From positions 36,110 through 100,109 of the forward strand of contig JAFKJY010000042.1 of assembly GCA_017305835.1 (NCBI GenBank): 64,000 nt of DNA, given 5' to 3'. This document shows positions 18,234 to 48,755 of this stretch, in pieces (positions within the stretch are counted from its first letter, which is position 1; every line of letters begins with the position of its first letter). A program made the position numbers and the translations under genes. The DNA is from Hyphomicrobiales bacterium (lineage in GTDB: Bacteria; Pseudomonadota; Alphaproteobacteria; Rhizobiales; Rhizobiaceae). The notes under the pieces were generated by a model, which saw only the letters and a program-made list of their open reading frames with translations, did no database searches and was not told the origin of the DNA.

Positions 18234-18294
18234 ATCGACTCGCCGCCGCTGAAATGTTTCGTTCCCGCTCAAACAACGGGGGGGGGGATGAACG

Positions 18295-21887: not shown

Positions 21888-22232
21888 CTACGCCGCCGCC
21901 CCGGTCCCGGCGGCGTCCCCGTTTCCCTCTGCGTCCTGGAAGTGATGCGCCAGCGCCTTGTTGAAAGCGTCGGCGCAGGCACGGAAATCCTTCAGGGTCA
22001 GGGCTTTGACGGCCGCCTGCGCATCACCGCGCACCGACAGCAACGGCAGCGCCGTCGTCACCGCGGCGACTTCCACCCCCGACAGACGGGTGAACAGGTC
22101 CGCGAGCGACTTGCAGTCCAGCGCCGTCGAGACGGCGGCGAGCCTGCCCATCTCCGCAGCGATGACCAAGTCGACCTTGCCGACGCGCAGGGCGACTTCG
22201 CCCCGCGCGCCGTTGACGGGAAGCGCGCTCAT
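21888..22232 (-). CDS. Tail assembly chaperone G (GTA gp10-like)
   Basis: NGARGEVAL N-terminus; between tail tube and tape measure. Confidence 0.75.
   Translation of the reverse strand: MSALPVNGARGEVALRVGKVDLVIAAEMGRLAAVSTALDCKSLADLFTRLSGVEVAAVTTALPLLSVRGDAQAAVKALTLKDFRACADAFNKALAHHFQDAEGNGDAAGTGAAA
21921..21927 (-). other. -1 ribosomal frameshift heptamer G GGA AAC
   Basis: X XXY YYZ in frame (GAG GGA AAC); -1 frame reads through to the T ORF. Confidence 0.8.
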
Positions 22233-22927: not shown

Positions 22928-22973
22928 GTCAGTTCTCCTTGGTGGAAGCCTTGCCGAAGGGCAGTTGCGGCGG

Positions 22974-23387
22974 TCAGGCGGCGGCCTGAATGATGGCGAC
23001 GAACTCGACCACGCCATGGCCGGTGAGATCGTCGGCGTCGTAGAAGATGCGTTCGCCGCGGTGGTCGAGCGTCACGAGCTGATTGCCGGGAAGCGTCAGA
23101 GGATAGTCATGCAGGGCGCGGCCGACCTCGTATGCGATGCTGCGCGCGTCCTGCAAAGGGTCCATCCCGCCGCGCGTCCATACATGGACGTTGAGGGTGA
23201 TTTCCTCGCCGGTGACGCAGGTGGCGTCGTCGCGGATGCCGAACGTGTCGAAGTTCGCGATGTGCGGATAGTCGGCCTTCTCGGGGGCGCGATACCAGAC
23301 GCGATCGCCGACGAGCGCGGCAACGTTCCCGGCCGACAGCAGCCTGTCGCGGGTGCACAGAACCAGATCTCTCGACGGTGCGCCCAT
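22974..23387 (-). CDS. Tail terminator (DUF3168-like)
   Basis: LVGDRVWY.AP...YP, HVWTR, HGVVEF pattern. Confidence 0.75.
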   Translation of the reverse strand: MGAPSRDLVLCTRDRLLSAGNVAALVGDRVWYRAPEKADYPHIANFDTFGIRDDATCVTGEEITLNVHVWTRGGMDPLQDARSIAYEVGRALHDYPLTLPGNQLVTLDHRGERIFYDADDLTGHGVVEFVAIIQAAA

Positions 23388-25309: not shown

Positions 25310-26728
25310 TCAGCTCGTCGCGATCTTCAGCAGCTTCAGCGCCTCGAAGTTCTGAACTCCGCCGCCGACGCGCTTCGTGGTGTAGAAGTGCACGTAGGGC
25401 TTGTTGGTGAACGGGTCGCGAAGCACCCGCACCCCCATGCGGTCGACGATCAGATAGCCGCGCTGGAAGTCCCCGAACGCGATCGGGAACTTGCCGGCGC
25501 CGATGTCCGGCATGTTGTCGTCGTCCGTGATCGGATAGCCCAGCAGCGTTGCCGGCTGGCCCACCTGGATGGAGGGCTGCCACAGGTACAGCTCCTCGGT
25601 CTTCGACTTCAGCTTGCGGATGACGGCCTGCGACTTGCGGTTCATCAGGAACCGGCCACCCTGGCGATAGCCCTGCTTGATCGCATAGACCAGGTCGGTC
25701 AGGGCGTCGGCGCCGTTGTGCGTGCTGTCCGTGAGCGCGGCCGCCACGCCCGAAGCGATGTAGCCCAGCTTACCCCACGCATAGGACGCATCGGCAACCG
25801 TGTCGTAGGACAGCAGGCCACGCGGCTTGTTCACGCCATCGCCGCCGATGTACGCCGCACCTTCCATCTCGGCGAAGGTGATGGACACCTCGTCGGCGAG
25901 CCACTGTTCGATGCTCACGCGGGAGTCGTCGAGCAGCGTCTGTGTCGCCGCCGGATTGGCATAGAGCTCCATCGCCGGGAACGACAGTTCGACGAGTTGC
26001 GGCGTGCCGGTCTCGGGACGCGCCTGGCGTTCGCCCACCCAGCCGCCGACCGCCCCGCCCTGGTTGACGAGCTTCTTGTACGTTCCGGCCGAGATCGACA
26101 TGACGCGCGAGATCGAACGCATGGCCGACACGGTACCGAGAACCCTGTCGATCGTGCTCTCCATCTGGTCGGGCACGACATAGCCGCCGTCCGGATCGCT
26201 GTCGGTACGGAGCGCCGCCTTGACCTCGAGTTCCCGCAGTCCGTTCTCGGCGCCCTTGCGGAAGAACCGGTTGAAGGCCGTTGCGTGCTCCCGCTTCTCG
26301 GCCGACAGGGGCTTGTCATCGCCGCCGCCGCCCACCTTCACGGCCGCGAGGGCGGCGTTCACCTCGTCGAGGGCAGTCTGGAGCTTGGTGATCTCGGAAT
26401 TGATCCGGTCGACCTTTTCGGTCTGCACCACGTCTGCGAATTTGGCCTCGATCCCCTTCAGTTCGGCCTCGCGTTCCGACTTGAAGTCCTCGAAGGTCTT
26501 CTGGAGCTCGGCGAGGATCTTCGCGGCGTTGGAGCTGTCGGCACGCACGCCGACAAGGCCCCGGGCGCGCGTGTTGAGCGGAAGCATCAGGCCCATCGCC
26601 GTCACCAGGTCGACATGGTTGCCGAGCAGCGACAGGACGGGCATGTGGTCGATCGGCGCCGCGCTGGCAAGCGACACGCCGCAGAGGAACATCGCCGCCA
26701 GGGCGACGCAGTAGGTCGCGATCTTCAT
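25310..26728 (-). CDS. HK97-fold major capsid protein
   Basis: DGGYVVP, AYIGGDGVNKPRGLL, IAFGDF, RDPFTNKPYVHFYTTKRVGGGV; AGGA RBS 8 nt before ATG 26728. Confidence 0.95.
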   Translation of the reverse strand: MKIATYCVALAAMFLCGVSLASAAPIDHMPVLSLLGNHVDLVTAMGLMLPLNTRARGLVGVRADSSNAAKILAELQKTFEDFKSEREAELKGIEAKFADVVQTEKVDRINSEITKLQTALDEVNAALAAVKVGGGGDDKPLSAEKREHATAFNRFFRKGAENGLRELEVKAALRTDSDPDGGYVVPDQMESTIDRVLGTVSAMRSISRVMSISAGTYKKLVNQGGAVGGWVGERQARPETGTPQLVELSFPAMELYANPAATQTLLDDSRVSIEQWLADEVSITFAEMEGAAYIGGDGVNKPRGLLSYDTVADASYAWGKLGYIASGVAAALTDSTHNGADALTDLVYAIKQGYRQGGRFLMNRKSQAVIRKLKSKTEELYLWQPSIQVGQPATLLGYPITDDDNMPDIGAGKFPIAFGDFQRGYLIVDRMGVRVLRDPFTNKPYVHFYTTKRVGGGVQNFEALKLLKIATS

Positions 26729-26733
26729 CGCTG

Positions 26734-27600
26734 TCATCCTTTCATGGAATTGATGAGCTGCCGGATGGCAGTCACGTCGATGCCTGCATCACGCGCGGCG
26801 GGATTGCGGCTTGCATCGCGCGGGGCCGCGGAAACGCCCATCTCCATCAGGAGTTCGGAGCGCTTGTCTCGGGTGAAGCCGGCACGGGCGAGTGCGGCCT
26901 CGGTTTGCCGGCGCGCCATCAGCGCGCGATCGGCAGTGTTCTCGGGGTCTGCGGACGGGCTTTCGATTCCGTCGTCGACGACATCGGCAAACCCCTTGGA
27001 CACCGCTTCCGTCGGCCCCATGAAGGTCTCGGCGTCCATCAGCTTTTCGATCTCGGCACGCTTGGTGCCGGACCGGGCTTCGTAGATGTCGGCGATGGCT
27101 GCATCGAACCCGTCGAAGAGATCGGCCGCATCGCGCATGTCGTGCCGGTTGCCGATCACGACGCCCCACGCATTGTGGACCATCATGAACGTGCCGAGCC
27201 CCATGCGGATCTCGTCGCCGGCCATGGCGATGATCGAAGCGGCCGACGCCGCCCATCCCATCACCTCGACCGTCACCCTGGCCGGATGCCCCCGCAACAG
27301 GTTGTAGATCGCGATGCCCTCGAACATATCGCCGCCGGGCGAATTGATCTTCACCGTCACGTCGCGATTTCCGATCGAACGCAGCGCCGCCGAAATCCGC
27401 TTCGCCGTCACGCCGCCGCCCGTCCACCAATCCTCGCCGATCACCTCGAACATGGTGATGGTGGTGTCGTCGTTCTCCGCGGCGGCGCGAGGGGTCTCGG
27501 CCCACTTCGCGAGCACGTCGCTCGGGGCGTCCCACTGAAAGTTCTGCGGGCGCTGGAAGGTCTTCGCCTCAGGCAGCTTTCGCAGACTCATTGCCTTCAT
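26734..27600 (-). CDS. ClpP-like (S14) prohead protease
   Basis: INSPGGD, AASAASII, MMVHN, ETFMGPTEAV. Confidence 0.92.
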   Translation of the reverse strand: MKAMSLRKLPEAKTFQRPQNFQWDAPSDVLAKWAETPRAAAENDDTTITMFEVIGEDWWTGGGVTAKRISAALRSIGNRDVTVKINSPGGDMFEGIAIYNLLRGHPARVTVEVMGWAASAASIIAMAGDEIRMGLGTFMMVHNAWGVVIGNRHDMRDAADLFDGFDAAIADIYEARSGTKRAEIEKLMDAETFMGPTEAVSKGFADVVDDGIESPSADPENTADRALMARRQTEAALARAGFTRDKRSELLMEMGVSAAPRDASRNPAARDAGIDVTAIRQLINSMKG

Positions 27601-28840
27601 CCTTCTTGTCGGGCTCGACGTTGATCATCGGGTTTTCGTAGACGTCGCCGCCTTCGACCGGGTTCATGTCCTCGAGCGCGCGCACGTCGTTGGCGGACAG
27701 CACCTTCATCTGGCGGCCGCGCATGTAGGCTTCCCACCTGGTCTTGATGTCGCCCTTCACGAGCGAGGCCCGGTTGAAGCGCGCATAGATGTCCGGCTCG
27801 GCGGGGTCGATCAGGTCGCGACCTACCGTCTCTTCCCATGTGGTCAGATCGTCTTCGGCGCTGAAGGTGACGAACCCCTGCGTCTGCGAATCGATGCCGC
27901 TGCCCCAGCTCGTCGACTTCTCGGTGTCGCCGATCATGTGCGGCGGGACGCCAAAGAACATGGCGACGTCGGAACGGGAGAACTTGCGGCTCTCGATCCA
28001 CTGCGCATCCTCCGCCGTCATGGCGAGAGGTGAGGTGGACATTCCCTCTTCCAGGATGAGAGCCTTGCCCTCGCTCTCGCCTCCGGAGCGATAGTCGTCG
28101 AGGCTGGACTTCAGGAACTCCAGTCCCTCCTTGCCCAGCTTGCCGGGATGCGTGAGTACGACGCTGACACGCGCGCCATTCTTGAAGACCGTCGCGCCAT
28201 GATCCTCCATGGCCAGCGACAGGCCGATCGTCTCCCGCGCATAGGTGATTACGGAGACACCATGGACGCCGTCGAGCGACAAGCCCACGAGATGAAACAT
28301 CTCGGATTGGGGAAGAGTGACGCGCCGGCCGTCCCTGCGGGTGTACGTGTATTCGAGGCCGAGATCGTCGCGCTGCTTGCATTCCACCCGGTCGGGATGG
28401 AGCGGGATCAACTCCTTCACCATCCCTCTGGACCGCACGATCATCGCATAGGCATTGCCGCGCAGCAGCAAATGCGCCGTCAGCATCCTCTTGAATTGCG
28501 AAGGCGTCTGCCACCGATTCGGGCGCCGGCGGAAGATCACCCAAAGCGGGTGATTGGATGCATCCTCGCGCGTGCGATCATCGACGCGACGCTTGATATG
28601 CAAAGGCATGTTGGCGACAACGCCGGAACGGATGCGCACGCACGCATAGACGGCCGCCACCCGCATTGCTCGGTCGGGCGTTACCGCGATGCCTGCCGAC
28701 GTCGCTGCGCCCGTGCGAAGCGCATCTTCCAGTTCCTGCGGCGTGGTAATCAACACGCCGCCACCGATCGACTGGCTGGCCGCGCGCGGCTCCGGGGTCC
28801 GGGAAGCGCCGCCCCCGAAGATGCGAGACCACAGGCTCAT
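27569..28840 (-). CDS. HK97-family portal protein
   Basis: AVYACV, PNRWQT, LLRGNAY, FGVPPHMIG. Confidence 0.95.
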   Translation of the reverse strand: MSLWSRIFGGGASRTPEPRAASQSIGGGVLITTPQELEDALRTGAATSAGIAVTPDRAMRVAAVYACVRIRSGVVANMPLHIKRRVDDRTREDASNHPLWVIFRRRPNRWQTPSQFKRMLTAHLLLRGNAYAMIVRSRGMVKELIPLHPDRVECKQRDDLGLEYTYTRRDGRRVTLPQSEMFHLVGLSLDGVHGVSVITYARETIGLSLAMEDHGATVFKNGARVSVVLTHPGKLGKEGLEFLKSSLDDYRSGGESEGKALILEEGMSTSPLAMTAEDAQWIESRKFSRSDVAMFFGVPPHMIGDTEKSTSWGSGIDSQTQGFVTFSAEDDLTTWEETVGRDLIDPAEPDIYARFNRASLVKGDIKTRWEAYMRGRQMKVLSANDVRALEDMNPVEGGDVYENPMINVEPDKKDEGNESAKAA

Positions 28841-28850
28841 GGGATTCCCT

Positions 28851-30551
28851 TCAGGCGACCAGGAAACCGCGCTCGCGGTAGACGGAATTTCCGTAGGCTT
28901 CCGGATTCCAGCTCATCAGGATCGCGGCGCAAAGCATGGCGATCACCGGGTCGATTTTGGCGCGGCCGGCGGCCTGCTTGGTCGCCATGTTGCCGTTTCC
29001 CTTGACCTCGATCTTCACGTTGCCGACCGACCAGGCCATCAGGGCCGACCCGTCGTGACTGAGCGTGTCGTCCGACAGCTTGTGTTCGAGGCCCCACAGC
29101 GCCGGCGAGAGCGCCGGACCCTGGCGAAGGCGGTGCAGCATGGCGCCGTCGATTTGACGAAGCGCCAGCGCGTCGACGAAGGCAGCGATGTTGTTCGGAT
29201 CGAAGCCGACCGCGTTCTTATCGGGCAGCAGGCCGGCATCGCGGACCTTCGCGGCGATCTCCGCGATGCGGGCGACATATTCGCTCACCTCGCAGAAAGT
29301 CAGCGAGCCCTCGGCTTCGAAGTCCCGCAGGCGCGAGGCGATCTCCTTGCGGACCTCGAGCACCTTCGGGTGGGCGAAGGCATGGCACCAGACCAGCCAG
29401 CGCCGCGTCACCTTCTCCCGGCCAATGACGCAGGCGCCGAACAGGTCGTCCAGGCCACCGCCGTCGGCGCCGACCACGGCGACCTCCGACCGCGCGATGA
29501 GCTCTTCCAGCGTCAGCGTCTCGTCGGCACGGAGATCCCAGAAGTCGGCCCCGCGCCAGCCGTCATCACCGAGGCCGACGCCGATCTCGATGTTGAGGTG
29601 CTGGCTGGCCCATATCTGCTCGGCTTCCGGCGTCGCCCGGCCGTTGTTCTCGTAGTCCGCGACGAGCCGCTGCGGATCGATCGACCGATTGATGTTCGGC
29701 AGCAGGATGTGCCAGTTCCTCTGGTCGCGCCAGAAGGCCTGATCCTTCTGGAAACTGGCCGGAAACTCGTAGAGCACCGGCAGCAGGATCGGCGCGCTGC
29801 CGCCCCTGCCGTCGCGGATGGCGCGGGCTTTTTGCAGCTCGGTCTTCCAGATGCCGGCCGGCGGCTCGTCCGACTGGGTGGTGATCATCAGCACCTGTCC
29901 GCCCTGCTTGGTGATGCCGCCGCCGCGGATCTGTTGCATGACGGCGGCCGCCTTCGCCTTCTTCCCGAGCTCGTGCAGCTCATCGATGATGGTGAGGACG
30001 GGAATCTCGCCCGTGACGATCGAGGTGTCGAAGGTCTTGACGTCCAGACGCGTGCCGGTCTTGCGGCGGGTGATGCACTTCAGATGGTCCTGCACCTTGA
30101 AGATCGCGTCGAGCGTTGCGTCGAGACGGATCATTCCCTGCGCCTGGTCGAAGCAGCGCTCCGAGATGTTCTGGCTCGGCGCCACGATCAGCATCTGGCG
30201 GTTCGGCGCCTCCTCCATGAACAGCGCCGTCAAACCGAGCGCGGCGACGTAGGTCGTCTTCGAGTTCTTCTTCGGCACCATGCACAGCAGTTCGACGACG
30301 AGACGCTGCTTCGTCTCGGGATCCTCGCTCGCCAGGAATGCGACGAGGATGTCACGGAACCATTCGCCACATGCTTCCGCGAGAGGCGGGTTGCCGGGAA
30401 CGTCCGGAAGCCGCAGCCGGTTGAAGAACGCCAGCGCCTTCGCTGCCCGGTCGGCGTTGAGCGGAACCTCCGCCATGGGCATCTGGCCGCGCTGCAGCCG
30501 GTCCCACCAGTCCGGACATGCGAACCGCGGCAGCACCTCAGTGGCGGGCAT
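28851..30551 (-). CDS. Terminase large subunit
   Basis: Walker A VPKKNSKT, Walker B IIDELHE, nuclease DGGGLDD and KIDPVIA. Confidence 0.93.
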   Translation of the reverse strand: MPATEVLPRFACPDWWDRLQRGQMPMAEVPLNADRAAKALAFFNRLRLPDVPGNPPLAEACGEWFRDILVAFLASEDPETKQRLVVELLCMVPKKNSKTTYVAALGLTALFMEEAPNRQMLIVAPSQNISERCFDQAQGMIRLDATLDAIFKVQDHLKCITRRKTGTRLDVKTFDTSIVTGEIPVLTIIDELHELGKKAKAAAVMQQIRGGGITKQGGQVLMITTQSDEPPAGIWKTELQKARAIRDGRGGSAPILLPVLYEFPASFQKDQAFWRDQRNWHILLPNINRSIDPQRLVADYENNGRATPEAEQIWASQHLNIEIGVGLGDDGWRGADFWDLRADETLTLEELIARSEVAVVGADGGGLDDLFGACVIGREKVTRRWLVWCHAFAHPKVLEVRKEIASRLRDFEAEGSLTFCEVSEYVARIAEIAAKVRDAGLLPDKNAVGFDPNNIAAFVDALALRQIDGAMLHRLRQGPALSPALWGLEHKLSDDTLSHDGSALMAWSVGNVKIEVKGNGNMATKQAAGRAKIDPVIAMLCAAILMSWNPEAYGNSVYRERGFLVA

Positions 30552-38385: not shown

Positions 38386-38913
38386 TCACCCGTTCGCCGC
38401 CAGCCAGGCGCCGACCTCGTCGGAGGAAGCGCCGAGTGCCGCGGCAATCGCGCCAGCGTCCGCGCCGCCGGCGCGCATGCGCGCGATCAGCCGACGCTCG
38501 TCGGCCTCGAAATGCGGGATCTCGACATCGGCCGAAGGCCGCAAGGGCGACCGCCCGTCGCGCGTCGTCGCGCGCCCCGCCGGAGCGACAGGAGGCGAAG
38601 CCTCCGGTACGTCGCGCGAGGCATAATCCTCTTCCACGAGAGCCCCGACGATCTCGTCGAGCAGATCCTCGTTCCACCACCTCGCCTTGCGGGCGTTGTT
38701 GAGGTGCGCCGAGGCGGCGGCCGGCGAGATGAAGGCGCAGCAGCGCGACAGCCCGGCCTTGCGCGCCTGCGGCCACGCCTCCGTCAGCGCGGCATAGGCG
38801 AGCACGCGGCTGCGTCCGCCCGGCACGCCGGACGCGATCGACAGCGGATCGTCGCCGTGGAACCGCGCGGCCATGACGATGGCCGTGGCTATTCTGTCGG
38901 CCGAGGGGAACAT
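38386..38913 (-). CDS. Hypothetical protein
   Basis: 175 aa between cII and methylase, C-terminal HTH-like segment. Confidence 0.55.
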   Translation of the reverse strand: MFPSADRIATAIVMAARFHGDDPLSIASGVPGGRSRVLAYAALTEAWPQARKAGLSRCCAFISPAAASAHLNNARKARWWNEDLLDEIVGALVEEDYASRDVPEASPPVAPAGRATTRDGRSPLRPSADVEIPHFEADERRLIARMRAGGADAGAIAAALGASSDEVGAWLAANG

Positions 38914-39395
38914 CAGGCCTGCCCCTCGCGCATGACGACCTTGAGGCCACCTTCCGCGCGGCCGGCTGCAGCCGAGCGCTTGCCCTTCACGAGCGCGCGT
39001 TCGAGCCGCTCCATGACGCGACTGAGGTCTGTCAATTCGTTCGGAGTCAGCTTGCCGTCGGCTACCGCCGCACCAAAGACGCCTCCGAGTTGCCCGGAGA
39101 CGACGAGCACCTCCGCCATCGCGGTCATAACGCAGGTCTCGCCTTCGGTGACAGGATCGGACAGCATGCGTCCGTCAATCGCGGCGAGAGCCGCCGTAAC
39201 CACCGGCACCCGGCACTTCTTCTGCAGCGCGATCACCGCAGGCCATGGCATCAGCGTCGGATTCCCGACGTCTGCCCAACGGCCGATCGTGCTGCGCCCG
39301 TACGGCACGATCACCTTGCAGTCGTCGATGCCGCCGCAAAGCCTGACGAGCTCGTTCTGAGCATGCTTGATCATCATGTGCTCGTCGGGGGACAT
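38913..39395 (-). CDS. CII-like regulatory protein
   Basis: LVRLCGGI...STIGRWAD, DGKLTPNE pattern; position after cro. Confidence 0.65.
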   Translation of the reverse strand: MSPDEHMMIKHAQNELVRLCGGIDDCKVIVPYGRSTIGRWADVGNPTLMPWPAVIALQKKCRVPVVTAALAAIDGRMLSDPVTEGETCVMTAMAEVLVVSGQLGGVFGAAVADGKLTPNELTDLSRVMERLERALVKGKRSAAAGRAEGGLKVVMREGQA

Positions 39396-39590
39396 CTCGG
39401 CCTCGCATGCGCGCGCGATCCCGTGGCGGGACAAACACGCGAAAAATCCCCTAGTGGGACGCAACGGATCGATTCACAGTGCGGGCATGGAAACCCGCGG
39501 ACACATCAGCCGGTCACGGCGGCGCGTGAGGCATCGGCAGGAGGCCCAAGGGCGCCTCCTGCCGACCCGGCTCGCTCTCACAGGTGTGGG

Positions 39591-40049: not shown

Positions 40050-40283
40050 TCATTCGGCCGGCTCCGGCTGGGACAACACAGGAGCAGCGACCGCGGCTGC
40101 AAGCGCCTCTAGCGTAACTCCAGCTATTCCCCTGCCGTCGGCTGACCGCACCATCGAAAGCCAGTATTCCGAAGGAACCGACGAACGGCGGCGCATGGCT
40201 TTCGCTGTCCCGTACTCGACGCCGATGTCGGCGGCGAAGTCCGCGAGTGTCGGCCAGAGGTTGATCAGGTCCGAATGCGTCAT
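40050..40283 (-). CDS. Cro-like regulator
   Basis: LINLWPTLADFAADIGVEYGTAKAMRRR HTH; divergent from cI. Confidence 0.8.
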   Translation of the reverse strand: MTHSDLINLWPTLADFAADIGVEYGTAKAMRRRSSVPSEYWLSMVRSADGRGIAGVTLEALAAAVAAPVLSQPEPAE

Positions 40284-40290
40284 TAGGCGA

Positions 40291-40367
40291 AAGGTACAAA
40301 TCATACCTCAATCTGTCAAGCACGCAGGATATGATTTGTATCCTTGCCGCCGGGTATCTTTTGTACC
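40291..40367. promoter_or_regulatory. OR-type switch: PR promoter and three operators
   Basis: Minus strand TTGACA-N17-TACCTT; GRTA-N7-TAYC operators at 40293-40307, 40328-40342, 40353-40367. Confidence 0.85.
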
Positions 40368-40814
40368 ATGGCCAACGATCTAGAGAAATTTGACAAGCAA
40401 GAGCGCGCGAGCCGGCTGAAGCAGGCGAGGATGCGCGCTGGCATTTCGGGACCAAAGGGAGTGTATGACGCCTCTGGAGGCGCCATCGACATCAACCTCT
40501 ACAAAGGTCATGAATCGGGCCGGAATGCTTTTTCGGTAAGCGAAGGTCGGCGCTATGCCGATCTGTTCGGTGTGCCTCTCACTTGGCTCTACCTCGGCAT
40601 CGGCAGACCGGAGGACGTCGGACTGCCCGGCGCTTCAAAAGAGCTGCGGCAGGCCTTTGCGAAAGTGATCGACGCCCCTCAAGGCGTACAGGATCAGGTC
40701 ATCAGTTTCATAAGGTTCGCGGTTGGCCAGGCTCAGGAGCCTTCGCAATCACCACAAGACCAACACCGTGATCAACATGAACGCGCCAATCGCCACCGTG
40801 CAATAGCGCCATAG
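40368..40814 (+). CDS. CI-like XRE repressor without S24 peptidase domain
   Basis: RLKQARMRAG...HESGRN...YADLFGVPLTWLYLG; only 148 aa. Confidence 0.8.
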   Translation: MANDLEKFDKQERASRLKQARMRAGISGPKGVYDASGGAIDINLYKGHESGRNAFSVSEGRRYADLFGVPLTWLYLGIGRPEDVGLPGASKELRQAFAKVIDAPQGVQDQVISFIRFAVGQAQEPSQSPQDQHRDQHERANRHRAIAP

Positions 40815-40956
40815 CGACGGCAATCTCTGCCGTCTTCCGTTTGACAACGATCTTCGGGTCCATGGGCGGGGCAGCTCCGGCCGCCTCTCTTAGCTCAGCG
40901 ATGATCTCGTCGTTGCGAGTTGCGAACCTTTGCCGGAGCTGGTGCCTGATCGCCAT
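40708..40956 (-). CDS. Small LexA-controlled protein convergent with cI (candidate antirepressor)
   Basis: 82 aa, GGAGG RBS, LexA box ~50 bp upstream. Confidence 0.55.
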   Translation of the reverse strand: MAIRHQLRQRFATRNDEIIAELREAAGAAPPMDPKIVVKRKTAEIAVAMALLHGGDWRVHVDHGVGLVVIAKAPEPGQPRTL

Positions 40957-41002
40957 GTCGCCCTCCATCTCCCTAGGAACACCGTCCTAGCCGCAGAGTC
41001 AA

Positions 41003-41017
41003 GAACATACGCGGAAC
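41003..41017. promoter_or_regulatory. LexA (SOS) box
   Basis: GAAC-ATACGCG-GAAC, adjacent to a minus-strand TTGACT. Confidence 0.75.
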
Positions 41018-41051: not shown

Positions 41052-41103
41052 GGTATGATCCGTATCTTTTTCGCTTGCATAGATCGGGTACGTAATGTAC
41101 CTC
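41052..41103 (+). promoter_or_regulatory. OL-type region: PL promoter with two operators
   Basis: TTGCAT(41075)-N17-TACCTC; operators GGTATGATCCGTATC (41052-41066) and GGTACGTAATGTACC (41087-41101). Confidence 0.8.
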
Positions 41104-41133
41104 TCCATTCGCACAACGCGACTGGAGGCCATA

Positions 41134-41727
41134 GTGTCAGCTCTCGACATCAACGACCTTGTCCGGGTCGAGATCACCATCTGGGTGGCGGGCAAGCCCG
41201 TCGATCCTGCGCACGAGCTTGCGGCCGACGCCTGCGACCGCGAGTTGACGCTCAACCTCGGCGCCGACGAGCCGGACAGTCTCGTCTCCACCCTGACGGA
41301 AATCGCCGAAGCGGCGGAGCACCATCGGCTCTACGGCTGGTTGGCGCAGGAGATGGCCAATTTCCCTGCCGGCGCCGGCGAGATCGTCGCGGTCGAGGAT
41401 CACGCCCTGACATGGGCGCGCAAGCTGGCAAAGGATTTCTACGGCCTCGAACTGGACGACACCGATTTCCCGCCCGCGTTCCGGTCCCTCAGCCAGGCTT
41501 CCGCCGGATGGATGCCTGCCTTGCTCGAAGTCGTGCGTTCGCATCTGCCGCAAGGCGATGGAGATCGTCGCCGAGCTTCACGGCCTGCACCGGATCAAGC
41601 GTCAGCCACAGCTCCTGATGTGGTCCAAGCAGAACGTCGGCCTCGCCCGTCACATAGTCCAGCCGCAGACGGGGCCAGCCCTCGGCCGAAAGCTCGGCGG
41701 CGTAAGACGCCAGGAGGGGACGCGTGA
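41134..41727 (+). CDS. First gene of early-left operon, hypothetical
   Basis: GTG with GGAGG RBS downstream of PL. Confidence 0.6.
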   Translation: MSALDINDLVRVEITIWVAGKPVDPAHELAADACDRELTLNLGADEPDSLVSTLTEIAEAAEHHRLYGWLAQEMANFPAGAGEIVAVEDHALTWARKLAKDFYGLELDDTDFPPAFRSLSQASAGWMPALLEVVRSHLPQGDGDRRRASRPAPDQASATAPDVVQAERRPRPSHSPAADGASPRPKARRRKTPGGDA

Positions 41728-41930
41728 TGCGAGTTCCCGCGTCAGTCTTCCCGGCCCCATCTCGCTTCATCGGAATAGCTCCTCGTTGGGTTCAAGCTGC
41801 GAGGGGTTACCGGCGGCGGATGCTTTCTCCATCCGTCGCCGACTTCTTCCCCAAACCTACACCTGTTCTTGCGCGCCATACAACAAATGCCGCGACCGCA
41901 CAGGTCTTTGCACAGGAGAACTTGCGATGA
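41724..41930 (+). CDS. Hypothetical protein
   Basis: Overlapping chain in early-left operon. Confidence 0.4.
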   Translation: MMRVPASVFPAPSRFIGIAPRWVQAARGYRRRMLSPSVADFFPKPTPVLARHTTNAATAQVFAQENLR

Positions 41931-42214
41931 TCCGCTACACCACCGCAGGGCTGCGCGTCCTGCCGCGCTCGGGCGAGGACGGCCGCTCCTCGATCGTCGA
42001 TCGCCTTGCCGAGACGATGCGCGAGATGGCCTTTGCCGGGCAGAACGCCACGGTCGAGAGCCTGTCGGCCCGCTGCCACCTCACCCCCGACGAGATCCGC
42101 GCCTTCGGCCCGGAAGCCGCCGACCTCGCCCGCGCCCGCTCGGTCCGCGCGCTCCGCGACGACCTCCCCCGCATCCGCGTCCCCGCCGGCTCGCGCCACC
42201 ACGAGGCGGCGTGA
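41927..42214 (+). CDS. Hypothetical protein
   Basis: AGGAG RBS, ATGA overlap. Confidence 0.6.
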   Translation: MIRYTTAGLRVLPRSGEDGRSSIVDRLAETMREMAFAGQNATVESLSARCHLTPDEIRAFGPEAADLARARSVRALRDDLPRIRVPAGSRHHEAA

Positions 42215-42215
42215 C

Positions 42216-42464
42216 ATGGGCGATCTGCGCATCGAGAATCCGGCGACCACGGACCAGTTCGTGGCGCTGATGGAGGCGGCCGACGTCAAGTTGCCGCTGG
42301 CCCTGCATGATGGGGACCTTGGCGTCGTCGTCGACGCGGAGGGACGCGATGTTCTCACCGTCGACGTCAACGGTGGGCGACCCGACGAGGCGGTCGAACA
42401 GATCGCGGGATGGATCGTGCTCGCCGTGAACACCTGCGGCGGCTTCCGGGCGGAACGCGCATGA
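42216..42464 (+). CDS. Hypothetical protein
   Basis: 82 aa, coupled. Confidence 0.55.
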   Translation: MGDLRIENPATTDQFVALMEAADVKLPLALHDGDLGVVVDAEGRDVLTVDVNGGRPDEAVEQIAGWIVLAVNTCGGFRAERA

Positions 42465-42664
42465 GCCCCGCCCCGATCATCCTCGAAGGCTTTTCGCGAG
42501 CGGCGGAAGCGCGCCGCGCCCGGGTCTCGGCGGACCTGACCGGGCGCGGCGCCTCCATCCTGCTGTGGCTGGCCGTCTCCCTGTCCCTCGGCGGCGCGAC
42601 CATGCTTCTGGTCGACCGCCTCTGCACCATGGAGGCCGCCGCGCGGATCGCGGCGGGTGTGTGA
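42461..42664 (+). CDS. Small membrane protein
   Basis: One TM (ILLWLAVSLSLGGATMLLV). Confidence 0.5.
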   Translation: MSPAPIILEGFSRAAEARRARVSADLTGRGASILLWLAVSLSLGGATMLLVDRLCTMEAAARIAAGV

Positions 42665-42810
42665 TGGCCTCCTTCCCGCCCCCGCCCGACTACGCCGATC
42701 CCGAGCCGCTGCCGGCCCGCCCGTCCGACCGCTTCCTGACGGTCGTCGTCATCCTCTGCGCATCGATCGGTTTCTTCGCCGGCGCGCTGTTCATGGCGGT
42801 GATCGCATGA
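42664..42810 (+). CDS. Small membrane protein
   Basis: One TM (FLTVVVILCASIGFFAGALFMAVI). Confidence 0.5.
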   Translation: MASFPPPPDYADPEPLPARPSDRFLTVVVILCASIGFFAGALFMAVIA

Positions 42811-43109
42811 GCAAGGCACGCGCGCCCTTCGATCCCGGCGATCCCTTCGACGCGATGGCCGAGAGCATACGCCGCCAAGTCTGCGACATCGCGCTCGGGA
42901 TGCTCAATGTCGGCGTCTATCGCGACCTGCCGCCCGGTCGCCAGCTCGAATGCCTGATGGCCGGCCTGCTGACCGGCACGATCGGCGTCCTCTTCGCCCA
43001 GATCGATCGCGCCCACACGGTCGAGGGCCGCGACGAGTTCATGCGCGCCATCGCCGACTACCTCCCGCTCGCGCGCCAGAACGCCGAGGAGATCATCTAC
43101 AATGGCTGA
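42807..43109 (+). CDS. Hypothetical protein
   Basis: 100 aa, coupled. Confidence 0.55.
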   Translation: MSKARAPFDPGDPFDAMAESIRRQVCDIALGMLNVGVYRDLPPGRQLECLMAGLLTGTIGVLFAQIDRAHTVEGRDEFMRAIADYLPLARQNAEEIIYNG

Positions 43110-43338
43110 GTTCTCCGAGCTTTCAGGCCGTTGGGCCGCAGATCTCGGCAATGCGATCTCCGACGCGATCCACGCAGCGCTGTTGCGTGGAATGGAAACG
43201 GACGAGGCAGCCTGCATCGCGGTCTCCGTGGCGGCCGACTATGCCCGCGCCGAATATGGCGACGCATATCTGCAAGACTTGGCAAAGGTCGTCGTCATGC
43301 GAGCCGGCCGACCGATGCCGGAGGATGCGTCGACATGA
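43102..43338 (+). CDS. Hypothetical protein
   Basis: 78 aa, coupled. Confidence 0.55.
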   Translation: MAEFSELSGRWAADLGNAISDAIHAALLRGMETDEAACIAVSVAADYARAEYGDAYLQDLAKVVVMRAGRPMPEDAST

Positions 43339-43616
43339 CCGTCGCCCGCCACGAGGGCCGATTGCAGCTCTGCTGCGACGGCTGCCCCGCGTCCTTCCCC
43401 GAGACCTACGAGGCCGAGGACTTCGCCACGATGATCGCCGACGCCAGGGCGGCGGGCTGGCGCATCGTCAAGCGCCAGTTGCCGGCCGAGCCGGACACGA
43501 GGGGCCTGTTCGGCCGCGCGCCCCGCATCGCCGGGCCGCGCCGCAAGCCCGAGCCCTACAGCCACACCTGCCCGGCCTGCCTCGCGCCCGCCGAGCCGCA
43601 CGGATCGCTGCTGTGA
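43335..43616 (+). CDS. Zn-finger-like hypothetical protein
   Basis: CCDGC ... HTCPAC. Confidence 0.55.
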   Translation: MTVARHEGRLQLCCDGCPASFPETYEAEDFATMIADARAAGWRIVKRQLPAEPDTRGLFGRAPRIAGPRRKPEPYSHTCPACLAPAEPHGSLL

Positions 43617-43643
43617 CCACCCGTCCCAACAAGGAGAACTGCC

Positions 43644-44510
43644 ATGCAGACTGACATCGTCCGGCCGCAGGCCGGCCTGCCGATCTTCCGCGCCGAGGGG
43701 CGCGACCGGCTCTTCCTCCGCGCCGGCGCGCAGATTGCCGGTGCGGACAGCCGCGCCGACGCCGAAACCGAGATCGCCCTGCCCGAGTTCGCCGCCGGCA
43801 CGGACTATCTCATTCGCAGCGATGCCGGCGCTCTCGTCGTCGCGCCGGCCGGCGCGGACCTGGCCGACGCGATCGGCGGCTTCCATTTCGCGCCGGGCGA
43901 CAACGCGTCCGCCCGCGCCGGCGGCGACGACGCGCCGGCGATCAACCCGTTCTCGATCTGGGACGCCGGCTTCCGCCCGGCCTGCGATCCGCGCGGCATG
44001 GCGCTGGTCGACCTGCCCGACGGCCGACGTCTCTGGGTCGACATCTACCTGCTCGGCACGGACCATCTGGCGCAGGGCACCAGCCGTCACGGCGCGACGA
44101 TCGCCGACGGCCACAGGAACAAGCCGAAGAAGCCGGACGGCAGCCGCCACGACGGCCTCGATTTCCTGACGGCCGTCGACATCTATGCCGGCCACGGCAA
44201 GCGGCTGCTCACCTATGACGAGTTCCGTGCCGCCGCCTTCGGCGTGACGGAGAAGAGCTCGGCCGACGACAAGCCGGAGACCGCCGGCCTCGACGCGGCA
44301 CGCACCAGCCGGTTCGGCCTGATGCAGGCGACTGGCAATCTCTGGGTCTGGGGAACCGACGGCGACCCCGACGATCCGCGCCCCTCGCTCTTCGGCGGCT
44401 CGTGGCTCAGCGGTCAGTACGCGGGCTCGCGCTACGCGGACCTCGACAGCTGGCCGGACTACTCCGTCGAGGGCTTCTCCGCGCGGGGCTGCCGTGACCA
44501 TGAATCCTGA
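43644..44510 (+). CDS. DGR target 1: Mtd-like C-type-lectin-fold protein
   Basis: AGTDY, GGFHFAPG, INPFSIWD.GFRP, DPRGM, WVDIYLLG, HGKRL, GNLWVWG, FGGSW, ARGCRDH motifs as recalled for BPP-1 Mtd; VR at C-terminus. Confidence 0.92.
   Translation: MQTDIVRPQAGLPIFRAEGRDRLFLRAGAQIAGADSRADAETEIALPEFAAGTDYLIRSDAGALVVAPAGADLADAIGGFHFAPGDNASARAGGDDAPAINPFSIWDAGFRPACDPRGMALVDLPDGRRLWVDIYLLGTDHLAQGTSRHGATIADGHRNKPKKPDGSRHDGLDFLTAVDIYAGHGKRLLTYDEFRAAAFGVTEKSSADDKPETAGLDAARTSRFGLMQATGNLWVWGTDGDPDDPRPSLFGGSWLSGQYAGSRYADLDSWPDYSVEGFSARGCRDHES
44377..44498 (+). repeat. DGR variable repeat VR1
   Basis: 122-bp match to TR with 13 mismatches, all at TR adenines. Confidence 0.97.
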
Positions 44511-44514
44511 CACC

Positions 44515-44534
44515 GCCGGCGCGAAAGCGCCGGC
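44515..44534 (+). promoter_or_regulatory. DGR target-recognition hairpin after VR1
   Basis: GCCGGCGC-GAAA-GCGCCGGC (8-bp stem, 4-nt loop). Confidence 0.9.
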
Positions 44535-44565
44535 CACCCTTCCCACACCAACCAGGAGGCCGTCC

Positions 44566-45471
44566 ATGGACGCCACAGTCAAGCAGACCCGTATCGATCG
44601 CGCCATCGCCGACGCGCCGATCTTCATCGTCACCGGCCGCGCGCGAATAGCCCTGCGCGCCGGAACCGTCATCCACCGGGACGGATTGCCGATCGCGCTG
44701 GACGGTGACCTGCCCATCTCGATCGACCTGGCCGACCTCGCGCCCGGAACGGACTTCGCCGTGCTGATCGAGGACGGCGCCGCCCGCGCGGTGCCGTGCC
44801 CCGGCGCCATCCCCGAAGGTGCGATCGGCGGCTTCCACTATGCCCCGAGCGGCAACGCAGAGGCCCGCGCCGGCGGCGACGGCCAGCCGGCCATCAACCC
44901 GTTCTCCTGCTGGGATATCGGCTTCCGCCCCGGCTGCGATCCGCGCGGCATGACGCTCGTCATGGTCGGCGGGCACCGCCTCTGGGTCGACATCTACCTG
45001 CTCGGCACGGACCATTTGGCGCAGGGCACCAGCCGCTGCGGCGCGGCGATCGCCGACGGCCGCGACCTGCCGCAGCGCGTCGACGGCAAGGGCGCCTGTC
45101 GCAAGCTCGACCATGCGACGGCGGTCGAGATCTACGCACATCACGGCAAGCGGCTGCTCGGCGCCGAGGAGTTCTTCGCCGCGGCCTTCGGCGTCGCCGA
45201 GCGGAAGTCGCTGGACGACGAGCCGTCGATCGCCGGTGCGCTGGACGGCAGGGGCGAGCGTTTCGTCAGCGCCCGCGGGCTGCACGGCGCCACCGGCACC
45301 ATGTGGCAGTGGGGCACCGACGGCGACCCCGACGAACCGCGCCCCTCGATCTTCGGCGGCTCGTGGATCGACGGTCAGGACGCGGGCTCGCGCTACGCGT
45401 ACCTCGTCGGCTGGCCGGACAACTCCGTCGGGAGCCTCTCCGCGCGGGGCTGCCGTGACCATGAATCCTGA
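44566..45471 (+). CDS. DGR target 2: Mtd-like C-type-lectin-fold protein
   Basis: AGGAGG RBS; same Mtd motifs as target 1; VR at C-terminus. Confidence 0.92.
   Translation: MDATVKQTRIDRAIADAPIFIVTGRARIALRAGTVIHRDGLPIALDGDLPISIDLADLAPGTDFAVLIEDGAARAVPCPGAIPEGAIGGFHYAPSGNAEARAGGDGQPAINPFSCWDIGFRPGCDPRGMTLVMVGGHRLWVDIYLLGTDHLAQGTSRCGAAIADGRDLPQRVDGKGACRKLDHATAVEIYAHHGKRLLGAEEFFAAAFGVAERKSLDDEPSIAGALDGRGERFVSARGLHGATGTMWQWGTDGDPDEPRPSIFGGSWIDGQDAGSRYAYLVGWPDNSVGSLSARGCRDHES
45338..45459 (+). repeat. DGR variable repeat VR2
   Basis: 122-bp match to TR with 12 mismatches, all at TR adenines. Confidence 0.97.
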
Positions 45472-45475
45472 TGCC

Positions 45476-45495
45476 GCCGGCGCGAAAGCGCCGGC
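45476..45495 (+). promoter_or_regulatory. DGR target-recognition hairpin after VR2
   Basis: Identical GCCGGCGC-GAAA-GCGCCGGC. Confidence 0.9.
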
Positions 45496-45515
45496 CGCCT
45501 GAACGGGGCCGACCG

Positions 45516-45881
45516 ATGATCAGGGACAATCCGGCCAGCACGACGGGGCTGGCGATCATGGAGAGATACGAGGCCGCGATGGCCTATCTCTATCCGATCG
45601 TCCAGCGCTTTCCGCGCCGCCACGGCAAGCTGCGCGACGCGCTGCTGGACACGATGATCGCTGAGGTCGGCCTCATCTATCACGCGGCGAAGTCGCGGCA
45701 GGCCTCGCGCCTGCACGCGGCCGACGCCAATCTAGCGACGCTGCGTTTCTGGTTGCGCTTCGCGGCCGATCCCTCGCTCAAGATCCTCTCGCCTGCCCAG
45801 CACAGGGCCGCCCTGCGGCTCCTGGCCGAGGTCGGCGCGATGCTCGGCGTCTGGATCGCCTCCACGAAGGGCAACGGGTGA
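45516..45881 (+). CDS. avd: DGR accessory variability determinant (four-helix bundle)
   Basis: ERYE...YLYP...PRRHG, ADANLATLRFWLRF, EVGAMLGVWI; position between VR and TR. Confidence 0.93.
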   Translation: MIRDNPASTTGLAIMERYEAAMAYLYPIVQRFPRRHGKLRDALLDTMIAEVGLIYHAAKSRQASRLHAADANLATLRFWLRFAADPSLKILSPAQHRAALRLLAEVGAMLGVWIASTKGNG

Positions 45882-45896
45882 ACGGGGATAGGATGG

Positions 45897-46018
45897 CGCG
45901 CCCATCGATCTTCGGCGGCTCGTGGATCAACGGTCAGAACGCGGGCTCGCGCTACGCGAACCTCGACAACTGGCCGGACAACTCCAACGAGAACATCTCC
46001 GCGCGGGGCTGCCGTGAC
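45897..46018 (+). ncRNA. DGR template repeat TR
   Basis: 24 adenines, 7 in-frame AAC codons; 3' end diverges (GACCCATTT) from the VR IMH (CATGAATCCTGA). Confidence 0.96.
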
Positions 46019-46306
46019 GACCCATTTCCGGCGCGGCGGCGGCCACGGCCCCGCCGGCTCGCTTCCCGCGCCCGTCCAGGGCGCATGGGTGGTCAGCCCG
46101 GACATCCGGCTTCGGCGAACACATTGCAGGGTCCGGCAGAGCGGGGAGTAGCCCCTTGCGCATGCGAGAGGTCGAAAACCGCGGCCGGCGTTTCATCTGC
46201 CTCACGCGCCGCACCGTGGCCGCAAGCGGCCACTGGCGCTCCGGCCGGGCGCGCAACGATGCGCGGCCGCCGGTCGGCGTCTCGGCCTTCGGCCGGAGGA
46301 TGCATC
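46019..46306 (+). ncRNA. TR-RT spacer, probable structured 3' part of the DGR RNA
   Basis: 288 nt between TR and RT with hairpins such as GTGGCCG-CAAG-CGGCCAC (46216-46233). Confidence 0.6.
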
Positions 46307-47308
46307 ATGGCCAAGAAGTACCGCAACCTGATCGGCCGTATCGTGGCCGACGACAACATGCTGGCCGCCTACCGGCGCACGGCTGCCGGCCGGCGTCTCT
46401 CGACCGGCTACCTTGAGTTCAAGGAATTCTCGCCGCTCAACCTCGATCGGCTGGCGGCCGACATGGCGAGCGGCGCCTATCGGCCGGGCGCGCAGCGCGA
46501 GTTCATGATCTACGACCCGAAGCTCCGGCTGATCTCGGCGCTTCCCTTCCGCGACAGGGTCGCGCAACATGCGGTCTGCCGCGTCATCGAGCCGATCTTC
46601 GATGCGACGCTGTTGCCACGCAGCTTTGCATGCCGGAAGGGCAAGGGCACGCATGCCGGCGTCGTCGCGCTGCAGGCCGAATTGCGGCGCCTGACGCGCG
46701 ACGGCGCGTCGCTCTATGCGCTGAAGACGGACTTCTCCCGCTACTTCGCCTCGATCGAGCGGCCGGTGCTCTGGCGCATGATCGAGGCCAAGATTTCCTG
46801 CCGCGCGACGCTGCGCGTCATCGAGGCGATGGTTCCGCGCGAGGGCATCGGCCTGCCGATCGGCAACCTCACCTCGCAGATCCTCGCCAACGTCTATTCC
46901 GGCGCCGTCGATCGTCACCTGCAGCAGGGCCTCGGCGAGCGCTGCTGGTATCGCTACATGGACGATCTCGTCGTGCTCGGCCGGTCGGTCGCGCATCTGC
47001 GCGCCGTCCGCGACGAGATCGAGCGGCTGGCCCGCGAAGAGCTCGGCCTCCGCTTCTCGAAATGGTCGGTCCAACCGATCAGCCGCGGCGTCAATTTCCT
47101 CGGCTACCGCATCTGGCCCCGCCACAAGCTGCTGCGCCGTGACAGCGTCGCCCGCGCCAGGCGCAAGATCGCCCGCTACCGCGCCGCCGGCGACACGGCC
47201 CGCCTGGAGCAATTCCTGTCTGCGTGGACAGGCCATGCGTCGTGGGCCGACACGCGCAACCTGCTGGCGAGCCTCGGCGTCGGAGGTCGCGATGGCGCTG
47301 CATCCTGA
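46307..47308 (+). CDS. DGR reverse transcriptase (BPP-1 Brt-like)
   Basis: 333 aa; FRDRVAQHA, ACRKGKGTHAG, KTDFSRYFASI, GLPIGNLTSQ, RYMDD, VNFLGYRI; GGAGG RBS. Confidence 0.96.
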   Translation: MAKKYRNLIGRIVADDNMLAAYRRTAAGRRLSTGYLEFKEFSPLNLDRLAADMASGAYRPGAQREFMIYDPKLRLISALPFRDRVAQHAVCRVIEPIFDATLLPRSFACRKGKGTHAGVVALQAELRRLTRDGASLYALKTDFSRYFASIERPVLWRMIEAKISCRATLRVIEAMVPREGIGLPIGNLTSQILANVYSGAVDRHLQQGLGERCWYRYMDDLVVLGRSVAHLRAVRDEIERLAREELGLRFSKWSVQPISRGVNFLGYRIWPRHKLLRRDSVARARRKIARYRAAGDTARLEQFLSAWTGHASWADTRNLLASLGVGGRDGAAS

Positions 47309-47546
47309 CGGTCTCGCCTACCCGCCGCGCGGCATGTCGCGCGAGGAGGCGGCGCGCTATATCGGCGTCGGCACGACTAAGTTCGACCAGCTCGTCGCCG
47401 ACCGCCGCATGCCGCGCCCGAAGCAGATCGACGGGCGTGTGGTCTGGGACAGGGTCGCGCTCGACGCCTGCTTCGCGGAACTGCCGAGCGAGGCCAGCGT
47501 CAATCGCATCGACGAGTTGCTTGCAAGAGCCGGCCAGCGGAAATAG
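47292..47546 (+). CDS. Excisionase-like (AlpA/MerR-type HTH) protein
   Basis: PRGMSREEAARYIGVGTTKFDQLV...PKQIDGRVVWDR; directly before integrase. Confidence 0.85.
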   Translation: MALHPDGLAYPPRGMSREEAARYIGVGTTKFDQLVADRRMPRPKQIDGRVVWDRVALDACFAELPSEASVNRIDELLARAGQRK

Positions 47547-47555
47547 CGTCCGGCC

Positions 47556-48668
47556 ATGGACGATTATCCCGGCCTCGGCTCCTACCTCGACCGTCACGGC
47601 ACGCGCCGCTGGCGCTATCGCCACAGAGGCAGGACGGTGTCCTTGCCCTGCGGGCCCGGCGAACCCGGCTTCGACGAGGCCTATCAGGCGGCTGTCGAGG
47701 GACGCCCCATCCGCAAGGCCGAGATCACGGTCCATCCTCACGCCGCCGCCCCTCGGTCTCTGGCGGCAGCCTGGAGGCTGGTGCGCCAGTCGGCCGAATG
47801 GCAGGTGCTGGACGATCTGACCAGGGCGAACACCACGCGCGTCGCCGAGCGTTTCCTGCTGTCGCCGGTGATCGAGGGCGAGCCTGATCTCTGGAGCGAC
47901 ATGCCGGTCGCAGACGTCAAGCGGCGGCACATCAAGAAGATCCTCGCCGATCGTGCGGCGACGCCACACGCCGCCAAGAACCTACTGACGCTCATCCGCA
48001 AGCTGATCCTCGCGGCCCTCGACGAGGAGTGGATCGAGGCTGACCCGACCTACCGGGTGAAATGGCGGCCGGCCTACGTCGGATTCCGCGCATGGACGGC
48101 CGACGAGATGGCTGCATTCGAGGCGCGCTGGGCAGTCGGCTCGACCCCGAGGCTCGTCTATGCCCTGGCCCTCTGGCTGGGAAACAGGCGTTCCGACCTG
48201 GTGCGGCTCCGGTGGGACCAGCTGGTCGAGCGAAAGCTTCTCATCGACGGCAAGATCGAGACGCTGCGCGGCTTCCAGATCGTGCAGAAGAAGACGGGCA
48301 AGGTTCTGTTCGTGCCGGAAACCCCGATGCTGGCGGAGGCTCTGGCGGCGACAGTGCGGCGAGGCGAGACAGTCGTCGTGACGGCCTATGGGGAGCCGTT
48401 CACCGCCAAGTCGATTACCGGACGCATGGCCGACTGGACGCACTCGGCCGGCCTGCCGAAGGGCTGCACGCTGCACGGTTTACGCAAGACGCTGGGCAAG
48501 CTCCTGGCCGAGGGCGGCGCATCTACCCGCCAGCTCATGGACGTACTCGGCCACGACGACATGGAGCACGCGGAACTCTACTCGCGCGAAGCGAACCAGG
48601 TCCTCCTCGCCGCCGCCGGCATGGAGCGCGTTGTCACGCTCGTCGGCAAGCGTAAGGTCGCCAGATGA
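47556..48668 (+). CDS. Prophage tyrosine integrase
   Basis: GNRRSDL, HGLRKT, LGH, LYS catalytic residues; 70 bp from attR. Confidence 0.93.
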   Translation: MDDYPGLGSYLDRHGTRRWRYRHRGRTVSLPCGPGEPGFDEAYQAAVEGRPIRKAEITVHPHAAAPRSLAAAWRLVRQSAEWQVLDDLTRANTTRVAERFLLSPVIEGEPDLWSDMPVADVKRRHIKKILADRAATPHAAKNLLTLIRKLILAALDEEWIEADPTYRVKWRPAYVGFRAWTADEMAAFEARWAVGSTPRLVYALALWLGNRRSDLVRLRWDQLVERKLLIDGKIETLRGFQIVQKKTGKVLFVPETPMLAEALAATVRRGETVVVTAYGEPFTAKSITGRMADWTHSAGLPKGCTLHGLRKTLGKLLAEGGASTRQLMDVLGHDDMEHAELYSREANQVLLAAAGMERVVTLVGKRKVAR

Positions 48669-48737: not shown

Positions 48738-48755
48738 TCCCCTTGGGCGTACCAT
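48738..48755 (+). repeat. attR core
   Basis: Exact 18-bp copy of 3004-3021. Confidence 0.92.

Follow-up and report, generated by a model that had tools for sequence, protein, structure and literature searches.

The usual reading of phage diversity-generating retroelements (DGRs) is that they switch tropism by acting on the tail fibres. The locus described here raises the question whether this reading extends to a DGR that is encoded far from any tail gene. It lies in a 64,000-nucleotide (nt) stretch of contig JAFKJY010000042.1 (the window), which comprises a 45.7-kb prophage of a temperate phage of a Rhizobiales-type bacterium. When comparing gene orders in the window and in related loci, it appears that the DGR travels with the early module (DNA metabolism and lysogeny) of a family of temperate Rhizobiales-type phages rather than with the tail module. 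Both hypervariable binding proteins that it diversifies may be something other than ordinary tail-fibre tips.

The DGR cassette

A complete DGR of the BPP-1 type is encoded on the plus strand between cI and xis/int, in the order target 1, target 2, Avd, template repeat (TR) and reverse transcriptase (RT). Each target gene contains a variable repeat (VR). The components are as follows.

43644-44510, plus strand: DGR target 1, 288 amino acids (aa), Mtd-like beta-sandwich and C-type lectin
44377-44498, plus strand: VR1, within target 1
44515-44534: hairpin after VR1, 8-bp GC stem with GAAA loop
44566-45471, plus strand: DGR target 2, 301 aa, paralogue of target 1
45338-45459, plus strand: VR2, within target 2
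45476-45495: hairpin after VR2, same 8-bp GC stem and GAAA loop
45516-45881, plus strand: bAvd accessory protein, 121 aa (PF22296, E 3.5e-26)
45897-46018, plus strand: TR, 122 nt, 24 adenines
46307-47308, plus strand: DGR RT, 333 aa (PF00078, E 9.1e-17)

Both variable repeats depart from TR at its adenines only, in 13 of 13 differences for VR1 and 12 of 12 for VR2, and 23 of the 24 TR adenines correspond to first or second codon positions in the targets. The 3′ segment of the VRs is identical to TR up to position 46018 and diverges after it; the first base past the repeat (46019) is G in TR and C in both VRs. The RT shares 54.5% identity with Brt of BPP-1 over 317 residues (E 1e-116). A longer open reading frame (ORF, 45878-47308) was rejected as the RT gene, as it includes TR and the homology with Brt, hence the real start, begins near 46307. 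The second target named in the initial annotation is present, but the earlier start assigned to it (44494) is an upstream GTG, and we have taken 44566 as the start.

VR1 and VR2 are identical in Logan contigs, which drop rare variants, of four bioreactor DNA runs from two studies (2016 and 2020). Repeats unchanged between 2016 and 2020 fit, if weakly, a DGR that is silent in the lysogen. Runs X1 and X3 hold a second contig of lower depth over the end of TR and the spacer (45961-46112 of the window) with 13 differences and 3 indels; that bioreactor community probably also harbours a related cassette. A public contig of the same element from a metagenome-assembled genome (L022; L numbers denote loci of the comparison set) shows a 559-bp tandem duplication at 11695-12813, giving the order VR2, avd, an exact copy of VR2, avd and TR. 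Neither the window nor three further public contigs (L023-L025) have this duplication, which arose either as an assembly error induced by the repeat or by recombination between VR2 and TR.

Placement of the cassette in related phages

Relatives were collected by two scans. The scan of species genomes gave 20 loci, including representatives of Mesorhizobium, Rhizobium, Shinella, Agrobacterium, Rhodopseudomonas and Rhizomicrobium, and the scan of one collection of viral contigs gave 418 matches, from which we retained the 78 best distinct loci. The set contains some near-duplicates, and genes were called with our own caller together with a reference panel. A target homologue was present in 96 loci and the whole cassette in 84; the cassettes comprise two targets in 45 cases, one in 41 and three in one. 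A co-oriented gene lies upstream of the cassette in 87 of 91 loci at a median gap of 33 nt, and co-oriented genes for DNA metabolism or integrases were found in 76 loci. Confirmed neighbours are DUF5131 (Gp37/Gp68), the DnaN clamp, DUF2303, Toprim proteins, methyltransferases, ParB-like and D5-like proteins, primase, 5-hmdU DNA kinase, an AAA ATPase and integrases.

Two architectures can be distinguished. In type A, which includes the window, the arm with the cassette points away from cII and the replication genes and has int as its last gene. In type B (L090, L109, L084, L111), int and cI are located on the far side, and the cassette has helicase or methylase genes at one end and primase genes at the other, at least 4.5 kb upstream of HNH-terS-terL on the same strand. 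The initial annotation had drawn attention to the adjacency of the DGR to xis/int. The early placement is indeed kept in about 100 related loci, but the adjacency is not constant. By these gene orders, the constant feature is the early DNA-metabolism cluster and the proximity to xis/int is incidental, because type B has int on the other side of the cassette. No single neighbour gene is constant in the set; the commonest are DUF5131 (27 of 98 loci) and a CxxC protein of the type encoded by e8, the last small gene ahead of target 1 in the window (17 of 98). In relatives this protein is encoded either just upstream of the first target or just past the RT gene, and it is possibly an optional accessory factor.

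First- and second-position targets cluster on the tree of the family, and each of 500 label shuffles required more changes. The pair therefore represents an old paralogy that was maintained in part of the family. In L013 (9923-10873), L073, L072 and L046 an extra target copy is found 3-5 kb off the cassette among co-oriented early genes; these remote copies also stay in the early module. Among the 96 loci, only the partial locus L052 places a target homologue next to virion genes. The regions concerned are L052 2312-3178 and 9964-13176. The homologue has 383 aa and a longer N-terminus, lacks Avd and RT genes nearby, and is convergent with a virion gene whose product is an internal protein containing an endolysin domain (phrog_342). 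The arrangement may be BPP-1-like.

The position of the cassette relative to the virion genes becomes clear from the layout of the prophage.

3004-3021: attL, 18-bp core TCCCCTTGGGCGTACCAT at the 3′ end of tRNA-Glu (2946-3020)
6741-7850, minus strand: lysin
10295-11557, minus strand: fibre
12592-15039, minus strand: beta-helix spike
15080-17479, minus strand: J-like protein
17664-18272, minus strand: tail protein (hub)
18615-19319, minus strand: distal tail protein (Dit)
19319-21682, minus strand: tape measure
22229-23017, minus strand: major tail protein
25310-26737, minus strand: HK97-type capsid
26734-27600, minus strand: protease
27569-28840, minus strand: portal
28851-30551, minus strand: TerL
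31608-28851, minus strand: HNH, terS and terL
48738-48755: attR, second 18-bp core TCCCCTTGGGCGTACCAT, 70 nt past the integrase gene

All recognisable virion genes reside on the minus strand. The distances given initially, at least 12 kb to the virion genes on the opposite strand and at least 20 kb to the tail genes, were borne out by the genes for TerL (28851-30551) and for the major tail protein, which ends at 23017. In the four relatives whose terL match is on the same contig at a consistent position, terL is 17-26 kb upstream on the opposite strand, like that of the window.

We compared the prophage of the window with the prophages of five relatives at the level of BLAST homology. The only families common to all six are TerS, TerL, portal, the targets, Avd and RT. 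The six prophages have no distal tail protein in common, and neither the spike nor the fibre of the window has a homologue in the other five; a J-like protein is common to four of the six. Cassette-sharing prophages thus have largely unrelated tail modules. A search for a late-promoter motif revealed no words of at least 11 nt common to the region upstream of the packaging genes and the cassette.

Plus-strand genes lie between the lysin and fibre genes (7936-9667). One of them has a sub-threshold match to Wzy_C (O-antigen polymerase/ligase; E 1.8e-5, 25 bits versus a cut-off of 31.7). The region resembles a serotype-conversion moron, which hints at surface polysaccharide as the receptor.

Predicted control of the leftward arm

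The cassette belongs to the leftward arm of the prophage, which starts beside the immunity switch and ends at the integrase gene. The features of this region are the following.

38913-39464, minus strand: cII-like gene, heading the minus-strand arm with the cro-like gene
40050-40304, minus strand: cro-like gene, 84 aa, first gene of the rightward early arm; homologue in L011 56% identical and in the same position
40293-40367: three 15-bp palindromic operators, GGTAY-N5-RTAYC (40293, 40328, 40353), filling the 63-nt cro-cI space
40368-40814, plus strand: CI-like helix-turn-helix repressor, 148 aa, without peptidase domain, matching phrog_2328 (transcriptional repressor)
40708-40968, minus strand: orf86, small gene, 86 aa (phrog_32610), convergent with cI and overlapping its 3′ end
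41052-41066 and 41087-41101: two further predicted CI operators just upstream of e1
41134-41727, plus strand: e1, 197 aa, first leftward gene, GTG start with GGAGG 7 nt upstream
41489-41770, minus strand: m2, 93 aa, interrupting the co-oriented chain; homologue in L003 64% identical
41927-43616, plus strand: e2-e8, seven small, tightly coupled genes (95, 82, 67, 48, 100, 78 and 93 aa)
43335-43616, plus strand: e8, 93-aa CxxC...CxxC protein with a weak Pfam hint (TRASH-like, E 0.0011)
47292-47546, plus strand: xis, small excisionase-like gene; homologues ahead of int in L005 and L008
47556-48668, plus strand: tyrosine integrase (PF00589)

It had been proposed initially that the same operators govern the cro/cI switch and the left promoter region, and the motif count agrees with this. 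GRTA-N7-TAYC occurs at seven sites in the window versus 0.24 expected, and none of 100 shuffles had seven or more. Five of the seven sites are clustered, three at the switch (40293, 40328, 40353) and two ahead of e1 (41052, 41087). Control of the leftward arm by these predicted operators is therewith supported statistically. The PL-like promoter postulated between them fared less well: TTGCAT-N17-TACCTC is there at 41075-41103, flanked or overlapped by the operators, but it is a weak sigma-70 match that failed a consensus scan. When the operator motif of the window was sought in relatives, single matches at most were obtained, as expected for differing immunities.

The third switch operator (40353) ends one base ahead of the start codon of cI, and the cI message may be leaderless or nearly so, as for lambda PRM. 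A terminator-like hairpin (40816-40834) follows cI directly. Upstream of orf86 there is a GAAC-N7-GAAC box (41003-41017); the count of such LexA-like boxes is not significant (2 found versus 1.67 expected), and orf86 is a possible candidate for an SOS-controlled antirepressor.

The notion of one co-oriented, overlapping gene chain from the left promoter to int had to be restricted. A tight array extends from 41927 to 48668, but the minus-strand genes orf86 and m2 interrupt the co-oriented series ahead of it. Likewise, the junctions from e2 up to target 1 are tight (+1, -4, -1, -4, -8, -4 and +27 nt) and the xis start overlaps the RT stop by 17 nt, but the target 1/target 2 and target 2/avd junctions are gaps of 55 and 44 nt that hold the DGR hairpins. 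A separate promoter just upstream of 43644 was sought and not found: the 27-nt gap holds a ribosome-binding site only, with no promoter-like site or stable structure. There is no CI operator in the 156-nt gap between m2 and e2 (41771-41926), and one promoter-like site at chance level is located at 42211-42239.

Frames of the small genes were set by codon-position GC and peptide mapping. The genes e1 and m2 are convergent with an antisense overlap of about 240 nt, sit between the operator region and the remaining leftward arm, and are kept together in L003 (7127-7682). Over 184 aligned bases, m2 and its L003 homologue differ at 13, 6 and 26 sites in codon positions 1, 2 and 3, which fits the minus-strand frame. 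An ORF antisense to e1 (41137-41553) was rejected, as a homologue was found for e1 alone and the short aligned stretch fits the plus frame. A crude gene caller and the public gene call favoured the minus ORF, which leaves e1 slightly uncertain. Searches of Pfam and PHROGs with e1-e8, m2 and cro gave nothing usable for function.

Function of the targets and known relatives

Targets 1 and 2 are 38% and 35% identical to Mtd residues ~49-377. The beta-sandwich family PF21916 (mtd_2nd) scores 29.2 and 26.6 bits on them (cut-off 24.6), and they align to residues 65-377 of PDB 1YU4 (E 3.6e-45), Mtd structures being the sole solved matches. The homology covers the sandwich and lectin domains of Mtd in full length, which points to a receptor-binding type of protein and counts against an intracellular role. 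The N-terminal beta-prism (Mtd residues 1 to ~48-52) is missing in both targets and in all aligned relatives, all of which begin at the beta-sandwich. This beta-prism is thought to attach the Mtd trimer to the fibre (PMC10743442).

Because the beta-prism is missing and the early modules are paired with unrelated tails, the function of the targets would be independent of a particular tail fibre. Together with the position in the early module and the full set of spike, fibre and J-like protein that the phage already encodes, this argues that the targets are not ordinary fibre tips. The missing beta-prism, the lack of a distal tail protein common to the six prophages and the existing set also count for an intracellular role, which we consider plausible. 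In our estimate it is about an even call that the targets are tail-independent binders made early, which work off the virion or as generic decorations of the particle. In the lysogen, CI would hold the leftward arm off. Upon derepression or infection the arm would be transcribed early, so that RT, Avd and TR RNA would be present during phage DNA replication, and adenine-mutagenised cDNA could overwrite VR1 and VR2 before packaging. The two targets would be made early as free trimeric binding proteins of the Mtd fold, and would act in the infected cell or after lysis, or as particle decorations. A narrower version of this proposal, which we put forward with considerable doubt, is that anchor-less Mtd-fold proteins form a conserved class of early-expressed non-virion binders, i.e. 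free trimers with a binding face rewritten by the DGR; on that same doubtful footing, they would act inside the infected cell or at lysis on partners that vary fast, such as host defence proteins, envelope components or competing phages, and not in adsorption.

Several points weigh against early-made, tail-independent binders. The terms 'early' and 'repressor-controlled' derive from gene order and operators, the promoter hexamers are weak, and the tight chain is separated from the operator region by a minus-strand gene (41489-41770). The stretch 41771-41926 or the upstream genes may contain an unregulated promoter. Public RNA runs were queried for a stretch of the window and for the cassette of one relative (L108), and no run matched. 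A proven virion receptor-binding protein shares 35-38% identity with the targets over its beta-sandwich and lectin domains, and all phage DGR targets studied by experiment are, to our knowledge, proteins of the virion surface. Targets made early could still be assembled onto particles later. A short motif for docking, or attachment to the conserved HK97-type head, would escape our six-prophage BLAST comparison. An AlphaFold2 model of target 1 (11-row alignment) was too poor for use, with a mean predicted local distance difference test score of 49.5.

A rival explanation is conventional tropism switching, in which the Mtd paralogues are receptor-binding proteins of the tail tip or side fibre that dock through an unrecognised contact, and the early position is merely a tolerated landing place for a mobile cassette. 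We regard the docking as possible though rather unlikely, and assign the tolerated landing place a similarly modest chance. The identity to the sandwich and lectin domains and the restriction of solved relatives to Mtd structures speak for this explanation, as do the J-like central fibre in four of six prophages, the fact that proteins made early remain available for assembly, and published surveys, which annotate most viral DGR targets as tail proteins (PMC8144416). It conflicts with the loss of the presumed fibre-attachment domain in every family member (PMC10743442), with a cassette that, barring the partial L052, is not beside tail genes among the 96 loci, and with the largely unrelated tails of the prophages that share it. 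The fibre of the window also lacks an Mtd_N-like domain by Pfam and BLAST: a split adhesin, in which tail proteins would have Mtd_N-like starts, was rejected, as Pfam matched neither the fibre (10295-11557) nor its neighbours and a BLAST comparison of the fibre with Mtd gave E 1.5.

A moron-like function, in which an internal, constitutively active promoter would drive the cassette in the lysogen and the variable proteins would serve the host or exclude other phages, could draw on the operator-free gap (41771-41926), the chance-level site at 42211-42239 and cellular DGRs, which reportedly diversify cytoplasmic lectin-fold sensors, but we deem it improbable, given targets without signal peptide or membrane segment (N-termini inspected by eye), VRs that are the same at contig level in 2016 and 2020 samples, and the tight translational packing of the cassette with genes that typify early lytic expression in relatives (clamp, primase, methylases).

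If the early-made binders indeed act off the virion, phages would own an evolvable, antibody-like binder for intracellular or post-lysis conflict, and the annotation of viral DGR targets in metagenomes would change. If the targets are on the virion, receptor-binding proteins can come from an early operon and dock independently of the tail type. In either case the family is large (418 matches in one viral collection): the closest relatives of the BPP-1 cassette seem to be inherited with an early DNA-metabolism module, with targets that lost the presumed fibre-docking domain and occur together with unrelated tails. Cultured lysogens with relatives make the question directly testable, namely Mesorhizobium sp. 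B2-3-4, Shinella pollutisoli KCTC 52677, Rhizobium sp. SYY.PMSO and Agrobacterium sp. GD03872.

The initial annotation regarded the locus as the best candidate for an undescribed system in the window. This is overstated, since every part is a known DGR part; in the literature we found no paper describing placement of a DGR in the early module. The leftward arm resembles the PL operon of lambda-type phages in that a further operator cluster with the same motif comes after the repressor gene, with three operators at the switch and two at the left site, and the co-oriented arm ends in xis-int-att. It differs in having two minus-strand genes interposed and no recognisable N-like antiterminator or recombination gene in the window.

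Mtd homologues of isolated siphophages (Marinomonas P12026 gp20 and the mtd genes of Synechococcus S-CBS1 and S-CBS3) share the sandwich and lectin domains at 33-36% identity, but are encoded in late structural operons and have N-terminal extensions; that of P12026 (494 aa) follows a tail-fibre gene and that of S-CBS3 (386 aa) the major head gene. Small anchor-less DGR targets of phages have already been published for gut phages (PMC10743442). These second targets (nd4_tgt2 and nd12_tgt2, DUF6273) are likewise ~230-300 aa long with a C-terminal VR on a lectin fold, lack the beta-prism, are often found in two-target cassettes, and their virion attachment is unknown (PMC10743442). They also lack the beta-sandwich, have no detectable sequence similarity to Mtd and stem from phages of gut Firmicutes, whereas the targets of the window are clear Mtd homologues from Alphaproteobacteria-type prophages.

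Judged by sequence similarity, the nearest characterised relative is the BPP-1 cassette (mtd-avd-TR-brt). Beyond the cassette, no BPP-1 gene has a homologue in the window. The BPP-1 cassette closes the late structural operon, after the tail-fibre gene bbp9 and before the lysis genes, on the strand opposite cI-xis-int, whereas that of the window lies inside the cI-xis-int arm. BPP-1 has one target in place of two in tandem, and the targets of the window differ from Mtd by the lack of residues 1 to ~52 (beta-prism) and of one insertion in the lectin domain. Yet both cassettes comprise the same four parts in the same order, with 54.5% identity for RT, 44% for Avd and 38/35% for the targets, and share the VR at the 3′ end of the target, differences confined to adenines and a GC hairpin with a 4-nt loop after the VR.

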